Positions 1,394 to 12,490 of a stretch of DNA of 13,478 nt are shown here, piece after piece. The notes beneath the pieces were generated by a model, which saw only the letters and a list, made by a program, of their open reading frames with translations, was not told where the DNA came from and ran no database searches. The position numbers were made by a program, and so were the translations under genes. Origin of the DNA: Amoebidium appalachense (taxonomy: Eukaryota; Protista; Ichthyosporea); contig CAVNZM010000079.1 in assembly GCA_963693365.1 (NCBI GenBank), forward strand, positions 1 through 13,478, read 5' to 3'. The first letter of the stretch is position 1, and every line of letters starts with the position of its first letter.

Positions 1394-1810
1394 CTCCATC
1401 TCAACGGCAAAGTAGTTGCCAGTAGTGACCGACACCACGACTGGAACTTTATCACGACCCCTGAACATGGCGCGCACAAACTCGTTGTAGTTGCCATACC
1501 CCAACAGCCCAAAAATGGCGCGCCCAGAGATGGTCTCGGTGTTGTCATGCAGAAAGGGGTCCAGAAAGCGCAGCATCTTAGCAACCACATCGTCCCTTAC
1601 AGTACAGTGCATCCTCCCCACATGACTCTTGCCCGGAGCGTGCCCCGGAACATCCTGATTTGTTTGCTTACACCAAGCTCTGGACACAAGATCGAAAGCT
1701 ATCAAATTGACCATATATATGACAAAGAAAAACAAGGTTGCCAAAGATCATTGTAGCAGTGCCCAGCAGCTGCTCAAGCTCGGGGGTGATGGGGGGGGGG
1801 AACCGGCCTT
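1394..1810 (-). pseudogene. Disrupted paralogue of exon 1 of gene A (AntA-like domain fragment)
   Basis: TVRDDVVAKMLRFLDPF...RGRDKVP is 43/54 identical to gene A by my count. 1757-1810 encodes the upstream part (KAG..PITPELEQLLGT), separated by a ~155-bp insertion and a frameshifting C-run. It ends at a GAG|GTGTGT donor (1394/1393) equivalent to that of gene A. No start codon or exon 2 is visible. Confidence 0.85.
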
Positions 1811-2794: not shown

Positions 2795-3275
2795 CAAACA
2801 ATCGTTAGTGCAGCCAATGGGACTGCGGGGTTCGTGTCAAACCTTTGATGATCGATATAATATGGACCATCACGGTGGCTGCTGATCGGCACAGTCTCTG
2901 TAGTTTCGAATCTGCGCGATGCTGTACTGCACGATGACATCTCTTCTCCATTTCATCAGAAGTAATGGAAAATCGTTTGAAGTACGAAAAAAAAAATGGA
3001 GAATTCGACGTCGTCGACTGCTTTACCGTAGCTTATAACGGAATTCGGAGCACGGCAATAAAGACCCGGAAACTGATGCTGCATCGGAATCGTGCTCTGT
3101 TTGAAAAAGAAACCACGGTCTCGGGTGCACGTTAAACATTGGGCTTTTTATTACTTTCTACCTTATAAACATATATACTTATATTTTAAATATAAACATT
3201 AGTATGGATGTAAAAGAATATTATGTTTTTTTTTTTTTTTTTTTTTTTACACGCCTCGAGATAGAACTGAGAAGG

Positions 3276-4247
3276 ATGGGAACAAACGAACAGAGGGAAC
3301 AGGAGACGGTGATGGATGCCGAGAGGGGGCATGTGGCGAATATCGTGGATGTGGCGGAGGTCGTGGACGGGGCAGACAGGGATGGAGGGACGGGGGCAGA
3401 CGGGGAAATGGTCGAGGCGGACGGGGGCGGGGAGACCCAAATGCCTGAGGGACACGGGGAGGATCGTCCGTTGTGTAACGACTGTGATAACGAGGAGATG
3501 GGTGTAAAGGAGACGGAACACGAACAGGAGAGCACAGTGACAGAGGAACGGCGTGCCGCGCAAGAGGATAAACTGAAACGGCTACAAGATATTATCAGCA
3601 GTGCCCGAGGGTTCGAGCGGGCCTACCGCGATGAAATTTATGACAACCCCGTCTACGACGAACGCGGCGTCAACCGCATCCTTGTATTTTATCAGCAGAC
3701 ACTGGAGAGCCTCATCCTACTGGTCGACGGCGTGCGGGATAGCACGGACACGGATATCGTCCGCGCCAAAGGAAAACGGGTTGTCGACGAGATCCAGGGG
3801 CTTCTCGCCAAGGCCGACGCGCAGCACACAGCACCCCAAAAGCGCCCTGCTTCGGACACCCGCGCCGCCGACACCAGAAGTGCTAAGCGCACCAAGAGGA
3901 CGCCCACTCACAGGGAGCGGCTAGTTAGCAAATTCTTCGAGTGGCTCAAGGAATCGGCCCCCTGTGGTGCGGTCTATCTTCTTCGTCACCTCAGGGACCT
4001 GTTCCACAAGAAGGCTAGCAGTGAGAGCAGGACTTTCGCACGAGCGCCTCTGTCTACGGATGAAGTAGCTAGGTTTTTGGGCAAGCAGGTAACTGTGTAT
4101 TTTAGGGCTATAGACAAGATAGAGGTGATGCGCCATAAAAAAGGGGAAGTTTATGCTGTGAAATTCCCTAGGAACCGTTTAGGAAAGCCCGGCTATCCGT
4201 GCCATAAGGCAAGAGGGTACTTTCTCGGGAATCTGGTGTGTGCTTGA
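3276..4247 (+). CDS. Protein with acidic N-terminus, BAG-like domain, basic NLS-like linker and C-terminal winged-helix-like domain
   Basis: Long non-repetitive ORF. 3570-3818 (KLKRLQDI...QQTLESLILLVDGV..DIVRAKGKRVVDEIQGLLAKAD) fits the BAG consensus (L..LLLKLD.I.....VR..RK..V..IQ.LL..LD). The start is uncertain: ATG 3276 is preferred over 3204, which reads through a T-run, and an upstream exon is possible. Confidence 0.75.
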   Translation: MGTNEQREQETVMDAERGHVANIVDVAEVVDGADRDGGTGADGEMVEADGGGETQMPEGHGEDRPLCNDCDNEEMGVKETEHEQESTVTEERRAAQEDKLKRLQDIISSARGFERAYRDEIYDNPVYDERGVNRILVFYQQTLESLILLVDGVRDSTDTDIVRAKGKRVVDEIQGLLAKADAQHTAPQKRPASDTRAADTRSAKRTKRTPTHRERLVSKFFEWLKESAPCGAVYLLRHLRDLFHKKASSESRTFARAPLSTDEVARFLGKQVTVYFRAIDKIEVMRHKKGEVYAVKFPRNRLGKPGYPCHKARGYFLGNLVCA

Positions 4248-4396
4248 TAAGGCCAACGGGCTTGGCGAAGTGAAAACGTGGTTGTAAAAATGCATTAAAA
4301 CACCCCCTTCCGGTCCGGTCCGACCCCTTTGGACCGCAGTCTGGTCCGGTTCGGTCTGAACAGGAGTCCTCGCCCGGCAGAGTCCCCCCCCCCCCC

Positions 4397-5164: not shown

Positions 5165-5261
5165 TATACGGATGATAGCGCTATTATATATTAGAATGGA
5201 AAAGTTGGCACTTTGGAGTTACATTGGGGTTGTGACAGGTGTGTGAGCACCGTAAAGCGGT

Positions 5262-5490
5262 GCTTCATTGGGTGTAGAAGGAATGCAGCATTCGATTGGA
5301 GAGGAGAATGGCATGCAGCATATGTGTAGAAAGTGCATGTAGCGCCGAACAAGCCGAACAAATCGACCCAATCATCTGGGACCAGTATTCTCTTGCAATC
5401 CTCTCCAATCGAATGCTGGATTCCATTCCTCTCCTCCTACAACCAATGAAGCGTACAACCAATGAAGCGCCGGACGCCTCCCTATATAAA
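5262..5490 (+). promoter_or_regulatory. Pol II promoter of gene A: CCAAT cluster, inverted repeat and TATA box
   Basis: CCAAT at ~5369, 5405, 5443 and 5459, plus ATTGG at ~5267 and 5295. TATATAAA at 5483-5490, about 90 bp before the Kozak-like accATGg at 5581. Confidence 0.7.
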
Positions 5491-5580
5491 CACAGCAAGC
5501 GCTGGACAGCCAGCACCTTTACGGTACACACACAGCACTCAACCCCCAAACCCAAAGCGCCAACTCTTCCACCAGTGACC

Positions 5581-7167
5581 ATGGCTTCCACCTACGCCAT
5601 CTACGAGCGCCTCAACATTGCCGGTGCCAAAGAGGCCGGCTTCCCTCCCATCTCTCCCGAGCTCGAGCTCCTGCTGGGCACCGTGGGCGACGACGTGGTG
5701 GCCAAGGTGCTGCGCTTCCTCGACCCGTTCCTGCTGGACAGCACCGAGACCATCTCCGGGCGCGCTATCTTCCGGCTGCTAGGGTATGGCCGCTACGAAG
5801 AGTTTGTGAGAGCCATGTTCAAGGGGCAGAAGGGTGTGCCTGGCTTTGTCCCGGTTGGCAACTACCGTGTTATTGACATAGAGGTATGAATCTCAGAATT
5901 CTTAAGTTTTGAATTAATTCCCGGCACTATGCCGTGAATTCTCTAATTGGCTATGGGGCATCATGCGACGTCATCACTTTTACGGATCAGGGCTGAAAAG
6001 TCATTTCGTCATTTTTGCGTCATCACTTTAGTCTCTACCATAACTCCAAAGTGTTAACGTCAAAACTTTTCAGGTTGAGTTTTGATTGGCGTTGTGACGT
6101 CATCACTTTCACGCTCCCAGAGCGGGAAAGTTTTGATTGGCTTTGTGACGTCATCGCTTAACTTCTGTTTCATGCAGAGCACTGGAGGTCGTCCGGGACA
6201 AGACCATCTGCTGAGTGCAAAGGGCTTCCGCCTTGCCTCGGCCGCCAACCATGGCATCCTGGGCCACGGAGTCCGAGTGTGGGCTGTTGACGTAGCCGAA
6301 GCATTTGCGCGCATGGCCGCCACGAACAAGGAGGAAGCTCTCTCCGCCCTGCACGCCACCCTTGCTGCGGCCGAAGCCCTTGCTGCCGAGACAGCCACCG
6401 AGCGCGACGCAGCCTTCGGCGCCAAGGAGGCCGCGGAGGCCGCCCAGGCCGAGGCACTCGCCACCCTCGCTGCCGCTCTCGCCCGCGTGAAGCTCGAACC
6501 ACTCACCCTCCCGACCCGCATGCCTCTCACAACCGGCGGCACGTACACGGACAACCATAAGTTCAAGCGCCTGACGCGCGCGTTCGCGTATGTGTGCGTG
6601 GACACGCTGTACGGCGAAGGCGTGCGCTGCGCCAGCACGTACACGGGCATGATCATGGCCACCACGGGCGTGTGCTTTGTGTTCCAGTCGGGGGAGATTT
6701 CCAACATCATCGCCACCACCGGGCTGCAGAAGGCCATGAAGGAGCGCATCCGGCTGTGGACCGGCGAGGAGCCCAAGTACTCGACCGACATGACCACGCA
6801 GCAGCTGTACACCTTTGTCTACAACTACACGCGCTGGTACGTCGAGTACTGCAAGGCGCCGGTGCTGCGCCAGTCGACCATCAACAACGCGGACACGGGC
6901 GCTGCCGAGTACGAGGTGCACGTCGAGCTGGCGTCGTGGCTGGAGGCCATCCAGGACAAGTTCCCCGACATCGAGCCGCTGGAGCTCGGGCGCACCGTCA
7001 GCCTCAACGAGCCGCTGGTGGAGCGCGGCGAGCAGCTCAAGGGGCAGACCCAGCTGGACGTGTATGTGCAGCGCGGGCGGCTGGGGCGGAAGCGCAAGGT
7101 CGCCCGCCTGCAGAAGCCCGAGGGCCCCGTTGATGTTGTGGTGATTGCGGACAGTGATAGTGAGTGA
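5581..7167 (+). CDS. Gene A, spliced join(5581..5883,6178..7167), 430 aa: AntA/antirepressor-like N-terminal DNA-binding domain, Ala-rich coil, unknown C-terminal domain, NLS and SIM
   Basis: Donor GAG|GTATGA at 5884, branch-like CTTAAC at ~6157, acceptor ttctgtttcatgcAG at 6177, phase 0. The join gives ISGRAIFRLLGY..YEEFV..NY..IE|STGGRPGQDHLLS..F..G..VR.W, resembling AntA-type domains (SAREL..L...F..W...DY...GGRP..DY.LT...G..VR.YF). GC3 bias is strong. Confidence 0.85.
5884..6177 (+). other. Spliceosomal GT-AG intron of gene A (294 bp), rich in CRE/CCAAT motifs
   Basis: Canonical donor, branch and acceptor. AT-richer than the flanking exons. Removal restores the frame and the domain. Confidence 0.85.
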
Positions 7168-7360: not shown

Positions 7361-7478
7361 TAACCCTGACCAAAAACCAAAAGTGATGACACAACTCGGT
7401 GCAACCAGACCCAATTAAAAAAGTCCATATGTCATGGCTAACCCTGACCAAAAACCAAAAGTGATGACGCAACTCGGT
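7361..7478 (+). repeat. Two 40-bp direct repeats with 78-bp period
   Basis: taaccctgaccaaaaaccaaaagtgatgac(a/g)caactcggt at 7361-7400 and 7439-7478. Confidence 0.9.

Positions 7479-7504: not shown

Positions 7505-7595
<91 letters not shown>
7479..7595. repeat. (CA)n microsatellite
   Basis: Seen directly. Confidence 0.95.
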
Positions 7596-7597
<2 letters not shown>

Positions 7598-8228
7598 CTT
7601 ACCGATGATAGCGCTATTATAAATTAGAATTGAGTTGTGTGTGTGTGTGTGCTTGCTCGGAATTGTGTCAGGCTGTGCAGTGCTAGAGCGCAGCGCCAGC
7701 GCGCCTGCCGGCGGGTGTTCTTTGTTATCAGAGTAGATATGTCATCATATGCGTTGACGTCATTTTGACGTCATTCGCTTACTTAAATAGACTTGGTTGG
7801 CGCTGGGGATGATGGGCCATCTGCATCATGTAGTTCTGCGCTGTACGTGGGAATAACCTGTGCAACATAAGCTCTCAATTGTAATTACAATAAATGCAAA
7901 AAATCTTGAATTGTATTTTTCATGGTGGGTGCATAAGCGTGAGACTTTCCATCATGGGTTCATCAATATGCAAATTGTTCTCTTGGGGCTGAGACTTCAT
8001 CCAATCGGTTTTCGGTAGAATTTGATTGGCCTAACCTGGATTTCCAAATGTTCTCTTGGAAGCCGTTATTTGGTGGGGGGATAGATGCGTAGATGGGTAA
8101 AACACGATTTAATTCAAGCAAAATCGCGAGAGAGAAAATGGATTGCTGCGCCAAAGAGTTCATGGTATATTTGTAAACATTTAGGCAGTCAAGGGCTCCG
8201 AAATGGCTTCAGTCCTTTTGCACTCACT

Positions 8229-8463: not shown

Positions 8464-9548
8464 ATGTACATGTCACAGACACTGCACACCGCGATGGACA
8501 TCGGCGCTCCTGGCGCTGCGCCTGTCTCCCAGCCGGCCGTATTCAGCACCTTCACGTTTCCACCCACCCCACAACCCGACCTGGACATCATACAGAGTAC
8601 CGACTTCATTCCGCTGACGTCCGACGATTTTGCTGCTTTTGACAACCAACTAGGTGACGGCTCCATGCTCCATGCGCCCACCCCGACGACGGCTAAGAGC
8701 CACGGCCAGCACCACGTCTTCGACTTCGACATGGTCTGCGGCGAGACAATCCCCCCCTCTCCGGCGCGTCCTGTTCCCGCACGTCTGCATCTGCAAGCGG
8801 TCTCCTCTCACGCCCCCACGCTGCCACCCACCACAACCACGCCAGCAACAACATGGTTTGGCCGGCTCAGGTCTGCCGAGAACCAGGATTCCGATACGAG
8901 ACAATGGAAGCGCACGCGCGCTAACATCTCAATGACCAAAAAGCCACCTGGTGAAATCAAAGCCCTCGCCACTGCTGGTGATTGGAGGCGCCATCTTGCA
9001 CCCCTGCCTGTTTCACAGATGTTGGGCGAGGCGCTCGACAGACTTAGCCCGTTGTGCCTTGTACCGTTCATCAGCTGCACGCTCCCTTTTGCAGCTAGCA
9101 AAGAGCAGCTCTCCTACCTCGACGCTGGTAGCATCTGTGCGCTTCTCGGCTTCAGGGACATCGATGAGATACGCGATCGTCTCGATCAGGCCAAAATCGC
9201 AAACGCCCGTGATGTACCAGGCACAGAAGCGGTAGGAGGGCCCCCCCCCCCCCCCCCCACACACACACAAGGCTTCCACACACACACACACACACACACA
9301 AGGCTTCCACACACACACACACACACACACACAAGGCTTCCACACACACACACACACACACAAGGCTTCCACACACACACACACACACACACACAAGGCT
9401 TCCACACACACACACACACACACACACAGGGCTTCCACACACACACACACACACACAAGGCTTCCACACACACACACACACACACACACAAGGCTTCCAC
9501 ACACACACACACACACAAGGCTTCCACACACACACACACACACACAGG

Positions 9549-9611
<63 letters not shown>

Positions 9612-10540
9612 TTTTGAAGCTTCCACCGACACTTTATCGACACCCCTACTAAATGGTGGATCCGGGCACCATAGTGGTCGTGGCTACGGTGGCGTTTTGC
9701 GTGGGCATGTTCTTTCTCAGTGTCCTTGACTATCTCTTCCCCGTGTTCTCGGAACCGATTAAGGGGGACCCACCCCCGCCATACTCAATCCATGCTGATA
9801 CTTGGTGATTCCTACAGGGGTCCCCGCACTACTACAAGGAGGGCAACTTCATGCTGGTCTCGCCCGCTGCGTTTCTTCACCTGACCACCCAGGTCTTGTA
9901 CGAGTCCCCCCTGGCCCTCGATTTTCTGGGATGGTTTAACAGCGCCCGCAACAAGGAGCTGCACTTGCACGAAACCCGGCTCTATGAGAAGACCCGCGGC
10001 GCGCCCCCTTCCACCACCCCTCTGGATGCCACCCGCCACATTCGCGCTACCTTTGTCGGTTTCCTGGTGGCCACACTCAGCTCGACATCCGTGCTTGACG
10101 TCCACAGCCTGGTGACCATCCTTGAAAAGGTGGCCAATGTGCAAGTCACTTCACGCTTCAAGACCCGCAACATCTGCGCCCCGCACGCCGAGGCGCTGGT
10201 TTTCAAGGTGCTTGCCCAGCGCATCAATATAGACACGGGCGTTTCGATAGCGTCTGCGCTCGACATCAACACGTTGCACCTCTACACGTTTCTCTCGCGC
10301 GCCCTTGAGGCTCTGGATGTTGACGTACCCCATCCACACGGCGTCCCAGCCAGCAGCACCCACAAGGACCCCCAGCTGCGCGACCTGAGGAAGCTGGGTC
10401 GCTCCCTCGAGAAGGACTTTGCCGGCATACGCCAGTTGCCCCTGGAGCCCAAGTCCTTCTTCTATGCCATGCCGGAGCGCCCGGTCACCCCGGCCGGACA
10501 CGAAGTGTGTGCGTGCTTCAGGATGGATCGGAGTCTTTAG
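8464..10540 (+). CDS. Gene B, spliced join(8464..9231,9818..10540), 496 aa: disordered N-terminus, Bro-N-like domain, C-terminal domain shared with gene A
   Basis: Donor GCG|GTAGGA at 9232, acceptor ttcctacAG at 9817, phase 0, in frame with ORF 9851-10540. The join gives YLDAGSICALLGFRDIDEIRDRLDQ...MLVSPAAFLHL...SPLALDFLGWF, matching the Bro-N pattern (F.A.DVC..LGY.N...I...D...ISESGLY.L...S.P.A..F..WV). The donor is weaker than consensus. Confidence 0.75.
9232..9817 (+). other. Predicted GT-AG intron of gene B (586 bp) containing a CA minisatellite
   Basis: Removal excises the repeat tract and restores the frame. Branch-like GCTGAT at ~9794. Confidence 0.7.
9241..9609. repeat. Poly-C then ~10 units of aggcttcc(AC)n, then pure (CA)n
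   Basis: Seen directly. Confidence 0.95.
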
Positions 10541-10854: not shown

Positions 10855-11311
10855 TTTATATACACCTACATAATCATCAACAATAGCCGCTAAACATTGC
10901 GCGTTGTCTCGCGCGTGAGCTTTTGCAACCTTGTTTGTATTTGACAGGCCCGATGGCCCATGCCTACCTATCAAATGTGTAATAATCTTATCATGTCACG
11001 TGATAAAAAGCTGACCAATCAGATCGTTTGACATCTGATAATCACCCTTTGATCGCTGAGGAGAAAGGGGGGTTTATCGATCTTGTCTGATTAAATCGCA
11101 TTCCGTGGCGCGGCTTGCCCTGTAAATATTGTTTCAATAAACCCCACTGTTTTTGTCGCTTGTGGGAGATTTCCATGATGCAATGACATTTTTTAATTGA
11201 AGATTGGGTGACAGGCAAACGGTGTCACATGGACATCAACTCTCACCTCAATCGGTTTCGTTTGTTCACCTTTCGCTCACAGCGATTTCTCTTCACCCAC
11301 CCTTGCAAAAC
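10855..11311. promoter_or_regulatory. Divergent intergenic promoter region between genes C and D
   Basis: AT-richer spacer with a TATA box on the - strand, palindromic TCACGTGA at ~10996 and CCAATC at ~11015. Confidence 0.45.
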
Positions 11312-12490
11312 ATGAACGCCCCACTCCCCCACCCACTCCCCCCTCCCCTCCCTTCACCCCCAAAGCCCGTTGAAGGGTGTGAATGCACTCGTTGCACAGA
11401 CCTTCGCGTCTGTGACGGCTCTTCCGACGCGTGTGCCGTCTGCGGTTACCACAACACCCCGCATCTCAAGACGAAATCAAAACACTTCCCCGCCATCACC
11501 CATTTTGTTTGTGGCTGCGACCACTGCCTGACCCTTGCGGCAACAAGTGTTCCCCGTCTGTGTAGTTCGTGCTTCACCTCGCTGTCGACTCACTCTTCTC
11601 CCATGCCCGGCCTCCCCGGCTGCTGCGACACATGCCGTAGCGGCACCCACTGTGCCTTCCGCATCGCCCGTCGCACCCACAACTATATCAACACACAGCG
11701 TCGGCGGGCTTGGAATGCCGTCTACTCCCTGCTGACCACCATACCCGTCCCATGCACGTGCATACCCGACATCCCAGACCCCCTCCCCACCGCCCACCGC
11801 ATGGCCCCGCACAACCCTGCATGTGCCATGTGGCACGTTGGCTTCCCCGCTCCCGTGCCCGAATGTGCCTCCCCCGTCTGTGCATGCACACACTACCGCA
11901 ATGCGGAGGCCTTTCTCGCTCACATGTGTGCGGGTCGCCTGCGCCACCTTGTCACTGACATGTACACCCCCGCCCTCGAATACTGCCCCTTGTGCAGCTG
12001 CCGCCGCCGCCCAGCTTCGCCCGGCACACCCCAGGCCTACGTGGCCGCCGACCTCCCCCTCCGCTTCCATTCCTGTCCTTGTCCACACTGCGTGCACGTC
12101 TTTGCACGCCCTGCCACCGTGCTCGTGTGTGCCGACTGCCACACACTCGTCCTGCAGCATCAGCATGGTGTGGACGGCTGCGCGAGGAGGCTTGTTGGCC
12201 GTAGACGACAGCTGCGACCGGGTTTGGCCCCCCGAAGACTTGTTCCTGCCCCACAAGCCCACACAAACACCCATTTCTCTCCCCAAACCCCACCATGCAC
12301 ATCTCTTCCACCAAGCCCATACCCATCCCCAAGCCCGCTCACACCGCCTGTTAAAGATACTGTATGCAAGAATTTAGAAGTTGAAGATCCCAACTCCCCC
12401 CAGGGTGAGTGGTTGTGGATGCTTTTCCCCTCTGGGTGGCAAAATGTGTGGGTGCCGGCCACCCCGGGCACCCCGCAAAATAAATCGTGA
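11312..12490 (+). CDS. Gene D: Cys/His-rich putative multi-zinc-binding protein (392 aa) with Pro-rich ends
   Basis: Uninterrupted ORF starting aacATG at 11312, with many CxCxxC/CxxC motifs and a Trp-rich tail (GEWLWMLFPSGWQNVWVP). No family recognised. Confidence 0.7.
   Translation: MNAPLPHPLPPPLPSPPKPVEGCECTRCTDLRVCDGSSDACAVCGYHNTPHLKTKSKHFPAITHFVCGCDHCLTLAATSVPRLCSSCFTSLSTHSSPMPGLPGCCDTCRSGTHCAFRIARRTHNYINTQRRRAWNAVYSLLTTIPVPCTCIPDIPDPLPTAHRMAPHNPACAMWHVGFPAPVPECASPVCACTHYRNAEAFLAHMCAGRLRHLVTDMYTPALEYCPLCSCRRRPASPGTPQAYVAADLPLRFHSCPCPHCVHVFARPATVLVCADCHTLVLQHQHGVDGCARRLVGRRRQLRPGLAPRRLVPAPQAHTNTHFSPQTPPCTSLPPSPYPSPSPLTPPVKDTVCKNLEVEDPNSPQGEWLWMLFPSGWQNVWVPATPGTPQNKS

Follow-up and report, generated by a model that had tools for sequence, protein, structure and literature searches.

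A probable spliceosomal intron at the wing loop of an AntA-like, virus-type gene in Amoebidium appalachense

Gene organization and copies

The window analysed here, a stretch of 13,478 nucleotides from Amoebidium appalachense, is eukaryote-like, (CA)n-rich DNA and carries a two-exon gene (Table 1) that is likely to come from a nuclear-transcribed large DNA virus or a virus-derived element and to be multi-copy now in a eukaryote. Four CCAAT boxes (5368, 5405, 5443 and 5459) and a TATA-like CTATATAA (5482) lie upstream of exon 1, where we infer a promoter role for the large inverted repeat; these motifs support the nuclear (Pol II) transcription that a preliminary description of this DNA had read from the presence of an intron. 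The stretch or part of it was present in 20 of the 24 sequencing runs listed, and the contigs show many diverged copies. Variants in exon 1 between copies fall largely at third codon positions (13 of 16 by hand count, among the positions listed), and in one variant copy the match runs through the donor to 5888 and then ends.

Two further genes of the window are related to the two-exon gene. In the decayed paralogue, similarity to exon 1 stops at the same codon and is followed by GTGTGT—that is, the donor is kept. The interruption of this copy (1604–1757, minus strand) is an insertion of ~150 nt that has, by eye, short inverted ends like those of a miniature transposon. The distant paralogue has a candidate phase-0 GT-AG intron (9232–9817) that is filled with (CA)n and is free of palindrome, CCAAT and CRE motifs; the N-terminal domain was not detected in this gene. 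Two TGACGTCA sites were seen upstream of the third gene of the window. Pfam and PHROG scans gave nothing significant for the exon halves, the read-through or the other open reading frames (ORFs) of the window, and no capsid, polymerase or packaging ATPase genes were found by these scans within the window.

Table 1 Positions of the two-exon gene, its intron and related features within the window
Feature	Position	Strand	Description
Exon 1	5581..5883	+	101 codons; N-terminal helices, predicted helix-turn-helix, first wing strand; ends in NYRVIDIE
Likely U2-type phase-0 intron	5884..6177	+	294 nt; GTATGA ... CTTAAC ... TGCAG
Exon 2	6178..7167	+	Second wing strand and helices, Ala-rich linker, unnamed C-terminal domain, basic RKRK tail
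Palindrome 1	5976..6001		Degenerate ACTTT...AAAGT; preceded by GACGTCATC
Palindrome 2	6025..6052		Degenerate ACTTT...AAAGT
Palindrome 3	6105..6131		Best wing-type palindrome, ACTTTCACGCTC-CCA-GAGCGGGAAAGT; centre varies between copies
Two units 51 bp apart	6078..6159		TTTTGATTGG-N4-GTGACGTCA, flanking palindrome 3
Upstream region	5197..5571		Large imperfect inverted repeat (375 bp), as if a promoter had been duplicated head to head
Decayed exon 1 paralogue	1394..1796	-	70% identical over 70 aa, with a break at about 1604-1757
Distant paralogue	8464..10540	+	Exon 2 (9818-10540) with the C-terminal domain in common, E 0.001

Sequence evidence for splicing

The preliminary description had joined two ORFs by a phase-0 intron, and this is borne out by the splice signals, by a drop in GC3, by the restriction of indels to the intron and by the same intron position in a diverged relative, the locus L001. 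The donor reads GAG/GTATGA and the acceptor TTTCATGCAG/AGC, with a branch-like CTTAAC at 6157–6162. The branch-site consensus is YTRAY, and a copy variant at 6160 is still of this type. The stretch between the splice sites contains five in-frame stops, and its GC3 is 0.43, against 0.80 in exon 1 and 0.85 in exon 2; four consensus-like donors occur in 5701–6000, and only the one at 5884 coincides with the GC3 drop. All eight indels between copies that were listed for 5740–6400 are intronic, and none was exonic in a wider listing (0 of 12, with 12 of 13 listed). GT-AG ends, consensus donor, branch and acceptor, a non-coding signature and a position common to relatives are thus found together, as in introns of the U2 type, and these sequence features make the phase-0 GT-AG intron at 5884–6177 very probably real.

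Contigs from six sequencing runs cover the site and none contains a 5883–6178 joint, so no intronless copy was seen, contigs being informative on presence and not on absence; two of the runs (X1 and X9), whose contigs include the intron, behave like DNA. Two further runs presumed to be RNA (X23 and X24) yielded no contigs over the site. In three tests of protein scores, the proposed splice pair ranked third, second and first of 49 pairs, and an in-frame AG at 6120 offers an alternative acceptor. As the protein scores do not single out the pair, the exact acceptor rests on the consensus signals. The DNA runs X3 and X8 each contain one contig that skips 149 nt within 6154–6304 with non-canonical ends and that possibly represents a paralogue with a diverged start of exon 2.

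An AntA-like domain across the junction

A profile built from 68 AntA proteins of phages, whose query was confirmed to belong to PF08346, matched residues 55–147 of the X-linked exons, corresponding to about 5743–6313, in agreement with the ~5752–6306 estimated previously. The score of 10.1 bits (over 14–101 of 113) is weak in absolute terms, compared with 3.1 and 4.3 bits for the two halves, 5.8 bits for the read-through and at most 3.3 bits for 300 shuffles; the L001 protein reached 15.6 bits, above all 300 shuffles. The register is also equal, phage sequences reading DFCSFLSE-STGGRP where the window reads NYRVIDIE/STGGRP. Exon 2 starts with STGGRP and the profile match spans the junction, as expected from the earlier proposal that the domain is split just before GGRP. 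Collinear homology to phage AntA domains, with weak scores, thus runs across the splice junction.

In contrast to the AntA/AntB (PF08346) and MSV199 (PF10553) families, neither exon half nor the read-through has a Pfam match, and P0009, an uninterrupted relative described below, has none either. A narrow MSV199-type profile (60 sequences) did not match the linked exons, and the hhalign comparison with that profile was not significant (E 0.15). Of the AntA-type domain that the preliminary description had recognized, the likeness to an AntA winged helix is hence supported, whereas the Pfam scans of the halves and the read-through assign the gene to neither AntA nor MSV199, and our own MSV199-type profile does not match the linked exons. 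Atlas neighbours of P0009 include Rha, Bro-N, ORF6N, P22_AR_N and AntA clusters at 0.77–0.90, which we take as a lead only. A first structural model, built from family rows alone, had pLDDT <50 over most of the domain. An AF2 model of the P0009 domain that included AntA/MSV199 rows had a pLDDT of 78.7 and placed the junction in a loop between strands 38–42 and 55–61; among viral proteins it came closest to antirepressor, MSV199 and Bro proteins (E of 0.02 at best), and several winged-helix DNA-binding domains are among its weak PDB matches (Z ≤4.6). These fold matches are partly circular because the model was built with AntA/MSV199 rows. Collinear but weak evidence supports an AntA-like winged helix, and the gene product is predicted to bind DNA and to act in the manner of AntA-type regulators. 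In AriS, the AntA/AntB domain controls genes of its phage, according to the accessible part of the report (PMC9043618).

Relatives of the gene

A search among 1.84 billion protein representatives gave ten matches. P0009 (310 aa, Logan), which may derive from RNA or from an intronless gene, covers both exons without interruption, P0012 and P0013 stop close to the donor and P0007 begins close to the acceptor; judging from their ends, the latter three are probably single-exon gene calls. P0005 comes from a 183-kb scaffold labelled Daphnia sinensis (the locus L001), where its annotation runs through part of the intron, and P0011 is a close C-terminal fragment labelled Daphnia pulex; the two scaffolds may be Daphnia DNA, a virus or a co-sequenced organism. 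P0010, which matched only the intron read-through, was rejected as spurious. Protein searches in viral and metagenome contig collections found no relatives, and neither a search for longer relatives of exon 1 nor a profile search added any.

The L001 protein shares 49% amino-acid identity with that of the window over the matched stretches, and the L001 intron (454 nt, phase 0, GTGAGT...TACTAAC...CAG) lies at the same position. L001 is gene-dense and virus-like, with primase-like, TFIIS, F-box, KilA-N and endonuclease-like genes, and contains no capsid gene in the 21.7 kb examined. Given that the position and the motifs of the intron recur in this locus, the intron is likely older than this insertion and a property of the viral or element lineage, and the long residence in a eukaryote genome that had been suggested from the intron is not needed.

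The C-terminal domain remains unnamed, as a fold search with a model of full-length P0009 found nothing at E 0.001 or better; the AntA and MSV199 genes differ from the gene described here in this respect. The domain recurs after the KilA-N gene of L001 (E 4e-5) as well as in the third gene of the window, which shows that modules have been shuffled. The KilA-N gene of L001 contains, at 13800–13950, an in-frame insert within its domain made up of two imperfect 66-bp repeats that bear CCAAT and CGTGAC motifs; this insert is an unspliced parallel to the intron and has no significant alignment to the intron of the window or to that of L001. L001 also has a tandem array of ~80-bp units at 3300–4300, each containing TGACGTCA.

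Content of the intron

The content of the intron, which the preliminary description overlooked, is the more interesting part of the locus. In addition to its three palindromes (Table 1), it holds units that we take to be an inverted CCAAT box joined to a CRE-like site. The introns of the window and of L001 both contain TTTGATTGG-N4-GTGACGTCA units, the last two of which are 51 bp apart and each adjoin a palindrome, and in both introns CCAAT and TGACGTCA motifs are interleaved with the palindromes. The CCAAT/CRE composite falls within the intron in two of its three occurrences in the window (the third is upstream, at 5223) and in all four in L001. The pattern ACTTT-N14-19-AAAGT, chosen after both sets had been seen, is confined to the introns (three of three matches in the window and two of two in L001), and none of 1,000 shuffles reached either count. 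Alignment of the two introns scored 43, compared with at most 28 in 200 shuffles.

Indels between copies cluster at the palindrome centre, and summed contig depth (which is not copy number) peaks over 6085–6153 relative to the rest of the intron. In folding tests, the best palindrome of the window had a z of -4.4, and palindrome 1 was no better than shuffles. Introners occur as near-identical copies at unrelated insertion sites; the intron was seen at the orthologous site only, in two loci. Rfam gave 0 matches. Scans of the contig collections with the DNA pattern of the CCAAT/CRE unit yielded one match each, both by chance, in a phage ORF and in a bacterial gene (presumably dnaA-like). The segment 780–847, in a region of duplicated fragments, matches 5898–5964, near the 5′ end of the intron, at 81%.

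Wing-loop palindromes in phages and giant viruses

In phage AntA genes and MSV199-type genes of giant viruses, the loop that links the two wing strands holds an in-frame DNA palindrome of variable length. The intron occupies this same wing loop in the two diverged relatives, with two to three such palindromes in each; the wing palindrome is thus intronic here and part of the coding sequence in the AntA and MSV199 genes. When viral contigs were scanned with the L001 palindrome, two of the ten matches fell in MSV199-type genes of giant viruses, in frame, where they are translated as VFRQPAEN and VFRQLAEN directly before GGRP, and the 22-mer of the locus L007 is identical to that of the L001 intron. 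This identical 22-mer belongs to L001; the best palindrome of the window itself had no close match among the loci scanned (≤18/28). We also take L004 to carry a gene resembling a giant-virus capsid gene.

In the analysis of palindromes and loops, four of 79 loci (L071 and L087–L089) were left out as partial. Giant-virus loops span 14–50 residues as delimited (56 of 60 distinct domains parsed), and their palindrome arms score 10.1 on average, whereas the mean is 5.4 in other windows and 5.0 when the codons are recoded synonymously. The loop beats every same-length window of its own domain in 41 of 56 giant-virus domains and 29 of 59 phage AntA domains. With no position prior, 31 of 42 best palindromes were centred on the loop, which accounts for 9% of residues; in the MAFFT alignment used for this position test, the tails of three exon-1 rows were misplaced. 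Among 80 phage loci, 34 of the 38 matches to ACTTT-N14-19-AAAGT lie at the wing.

Origin and possible role of the intron

We favour, with a probability of roughly 0.6 on the sequence comparisons above, a reading in which the intron is the intragenic palindrome site (operator) of this gene family, expanded and intronised, and may act as a regulatory element. Descent of the intron palindromes from the wing element is, for its part, quite probable. An intron at the spot of the wing-loop palindrome, with several such sites beside host-type motifs, would for that reason likely be a control element. The palindromes would be sites for the gene's own product or its paralogues, that is, putative self-operators. 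In a nuclear-transcribed lineage, the loop element may have expanded in frame, as in giant viruses, until host splice sites flanked the expanded loop and released the element from coding constraint, and a short exon-coded loop of ancestral length would have remained after the intron was gained. The array could then have become an intronic enhancer or autoregulatory switch, read by the viral protein together with host CCAAT- and CRE-binding factors, and possibly a replication origin as well.

Alternatively, the intron could be real but ordinary, having been gained at a tolerant loop, with repeats that stem from an element dispersed in the host or by a virus (a small transposon or promoter fragment) and a likeness to wing loops that arose by convergence. 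Composite CCAAT/CRE motifs are common regulatory sequence, and the further composite at 5223, the recurrence of part of the 5′ end of the intron at 780–847 and the depth peak over the unit, which would fit a dispersed repeat too, agree with such an origin. We nonetheless regard it as unlikely, considering that in both loci the motif is found nowhere but in the intron (the upstream copy of the composite being the one exception), that the 22-mer of L001 is identical to an in-frame wing loop of a giant virus and that the intron position coincides with the loop. The palindromes could also be descendants of the wing loop that persist as relics, or that serve replication or recombination only, with no role in transcription. 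The degenerate palindrome copies of the window and the palindrome centre that varies between copies are what relics would show, and baculovirus hr arrays act as origins too (PMC13513840, in its accessible part); the unit and its 51-bp spacing are, however, kept between proteins that are only about half identical and introns that otherwise cannot be aligned, and we judge this account improbable. The absence of splicing—two separate ORFs, or a pseudogene broken by an insertion—is very improbable, given that, even if protein scores alone do not pick the junction and exon 2 of L001 is frameshifted near 10890–10906, canonical donor, branch and acceptor sites occur in two diverged genes with introns of different length, GC3 is high in both exons, copies of exon 1 differ mostly at third positions and have indels in the intron only, and P0009 is continuous.

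Comparison with known systems

Introns are known in mirusviruses, pandoraviruses, chloroviruses and endogenous giant viruses, and to find a spliceosomal intron in a gene of viral type is by now no surprise. As described in the accessible parts of the sources, those viral introns resemble the one proposed here in having GT-AG ends and interrupting genes of large DNA viruses, which is taken to indicate transcription in the nucleus, but are short and host-like, introners or endonuclease-carrying, with none described there as derived from the gene's own operator (PMC12768974, PMC13692296). Amoebidium harbours endogenous giant viruses and tandem giant repeats, and, like the endogenous viruses, the window represents many diverged copies of a virus-like gene in a protist genome; most endogenous viral genes are reported to be without introns in the accessible part of that work, unlike the gene here, which is likely intron-split (PMC11244446).

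The hrs of baculoviruses, enhancers and origins that contain both palindromes and CRE motifs, resemble the array described here in its repeated imperfect palindromes and interspersed CRE-like motifs, as far as the accessible part of the source goes (PMC13513840). The hr units there are ~70 bp long, contain an EcoRI palindrome of 30 bp and occur at sites across the genome, whereas the array here has a 51-bp spacing and another palindrome, lies inside the regulator's own gene and includes CCAAT boxes (PMC13513840). By this analogy, the array resembles the hr enhancers, and we infer that it may have an enhancer or origin role. The array differs from the intragenic operators of antirepressor-type genes in that it is eukaryotic, has been multiplied, is likely removed by splicing and occurs together with CCAAT and CRE-like motifs. 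A search of the openly available literature found nothing on an intronised antirepressor palindrome and nothing that links MSV199 with palindromes.

The favoured reading extends, tentatively and at somewhat less than even odds, to a route of intron birth in which a phage-type in-gene operator was amplified, passed to the host spliceosome and joined to CCAAT and CRE sites of the host, forming an hr-like enhancer or origin in an undescribed nuclear DNA virus lineage. Introns that can be traced to a specific ancestral coding element are rare, and this one, if the reading is true, would document intron gain by intronisation directly. It would also connect the palindromes inside phage antirepressor genes with hr-like enhancers of eukaryotic viruses and name a candidate binding site for the AntA/MSV199-like family, which is widespread but barely studied.

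Other features of the window

Several further features were noted around the gene. The ORF at 3204–4247 (plus strand) has a weak BAG-domain match (E 0.026) and is otherwise without a known family, and the ORF at 11315–12490 (plus strand) encodes a Cys/His-rich protein of 391 aa without a family match. A CCAAT-rich element occupies 130–700, 1810–2044 and 2193–2780 as a 300-bp direct duplication and a 235-bp inverted copy; the element ends in TAGCGCTA and (CA)n. On either side of the gene unit lies a copy of a 40-bp direct repeat (GATGATAGCGCTATTAT...TTAGAAT; 5170–5200 and 7594–7633), each directly 3′ of a (CA)n tract; the repeat possibly marks the boundary of a repeated unit. On the 3′ side of the gene, TAACCCTGACCAAAAACCAAAAGTGATGAC occurs twice, at 7361–7478 and 7755–7773.
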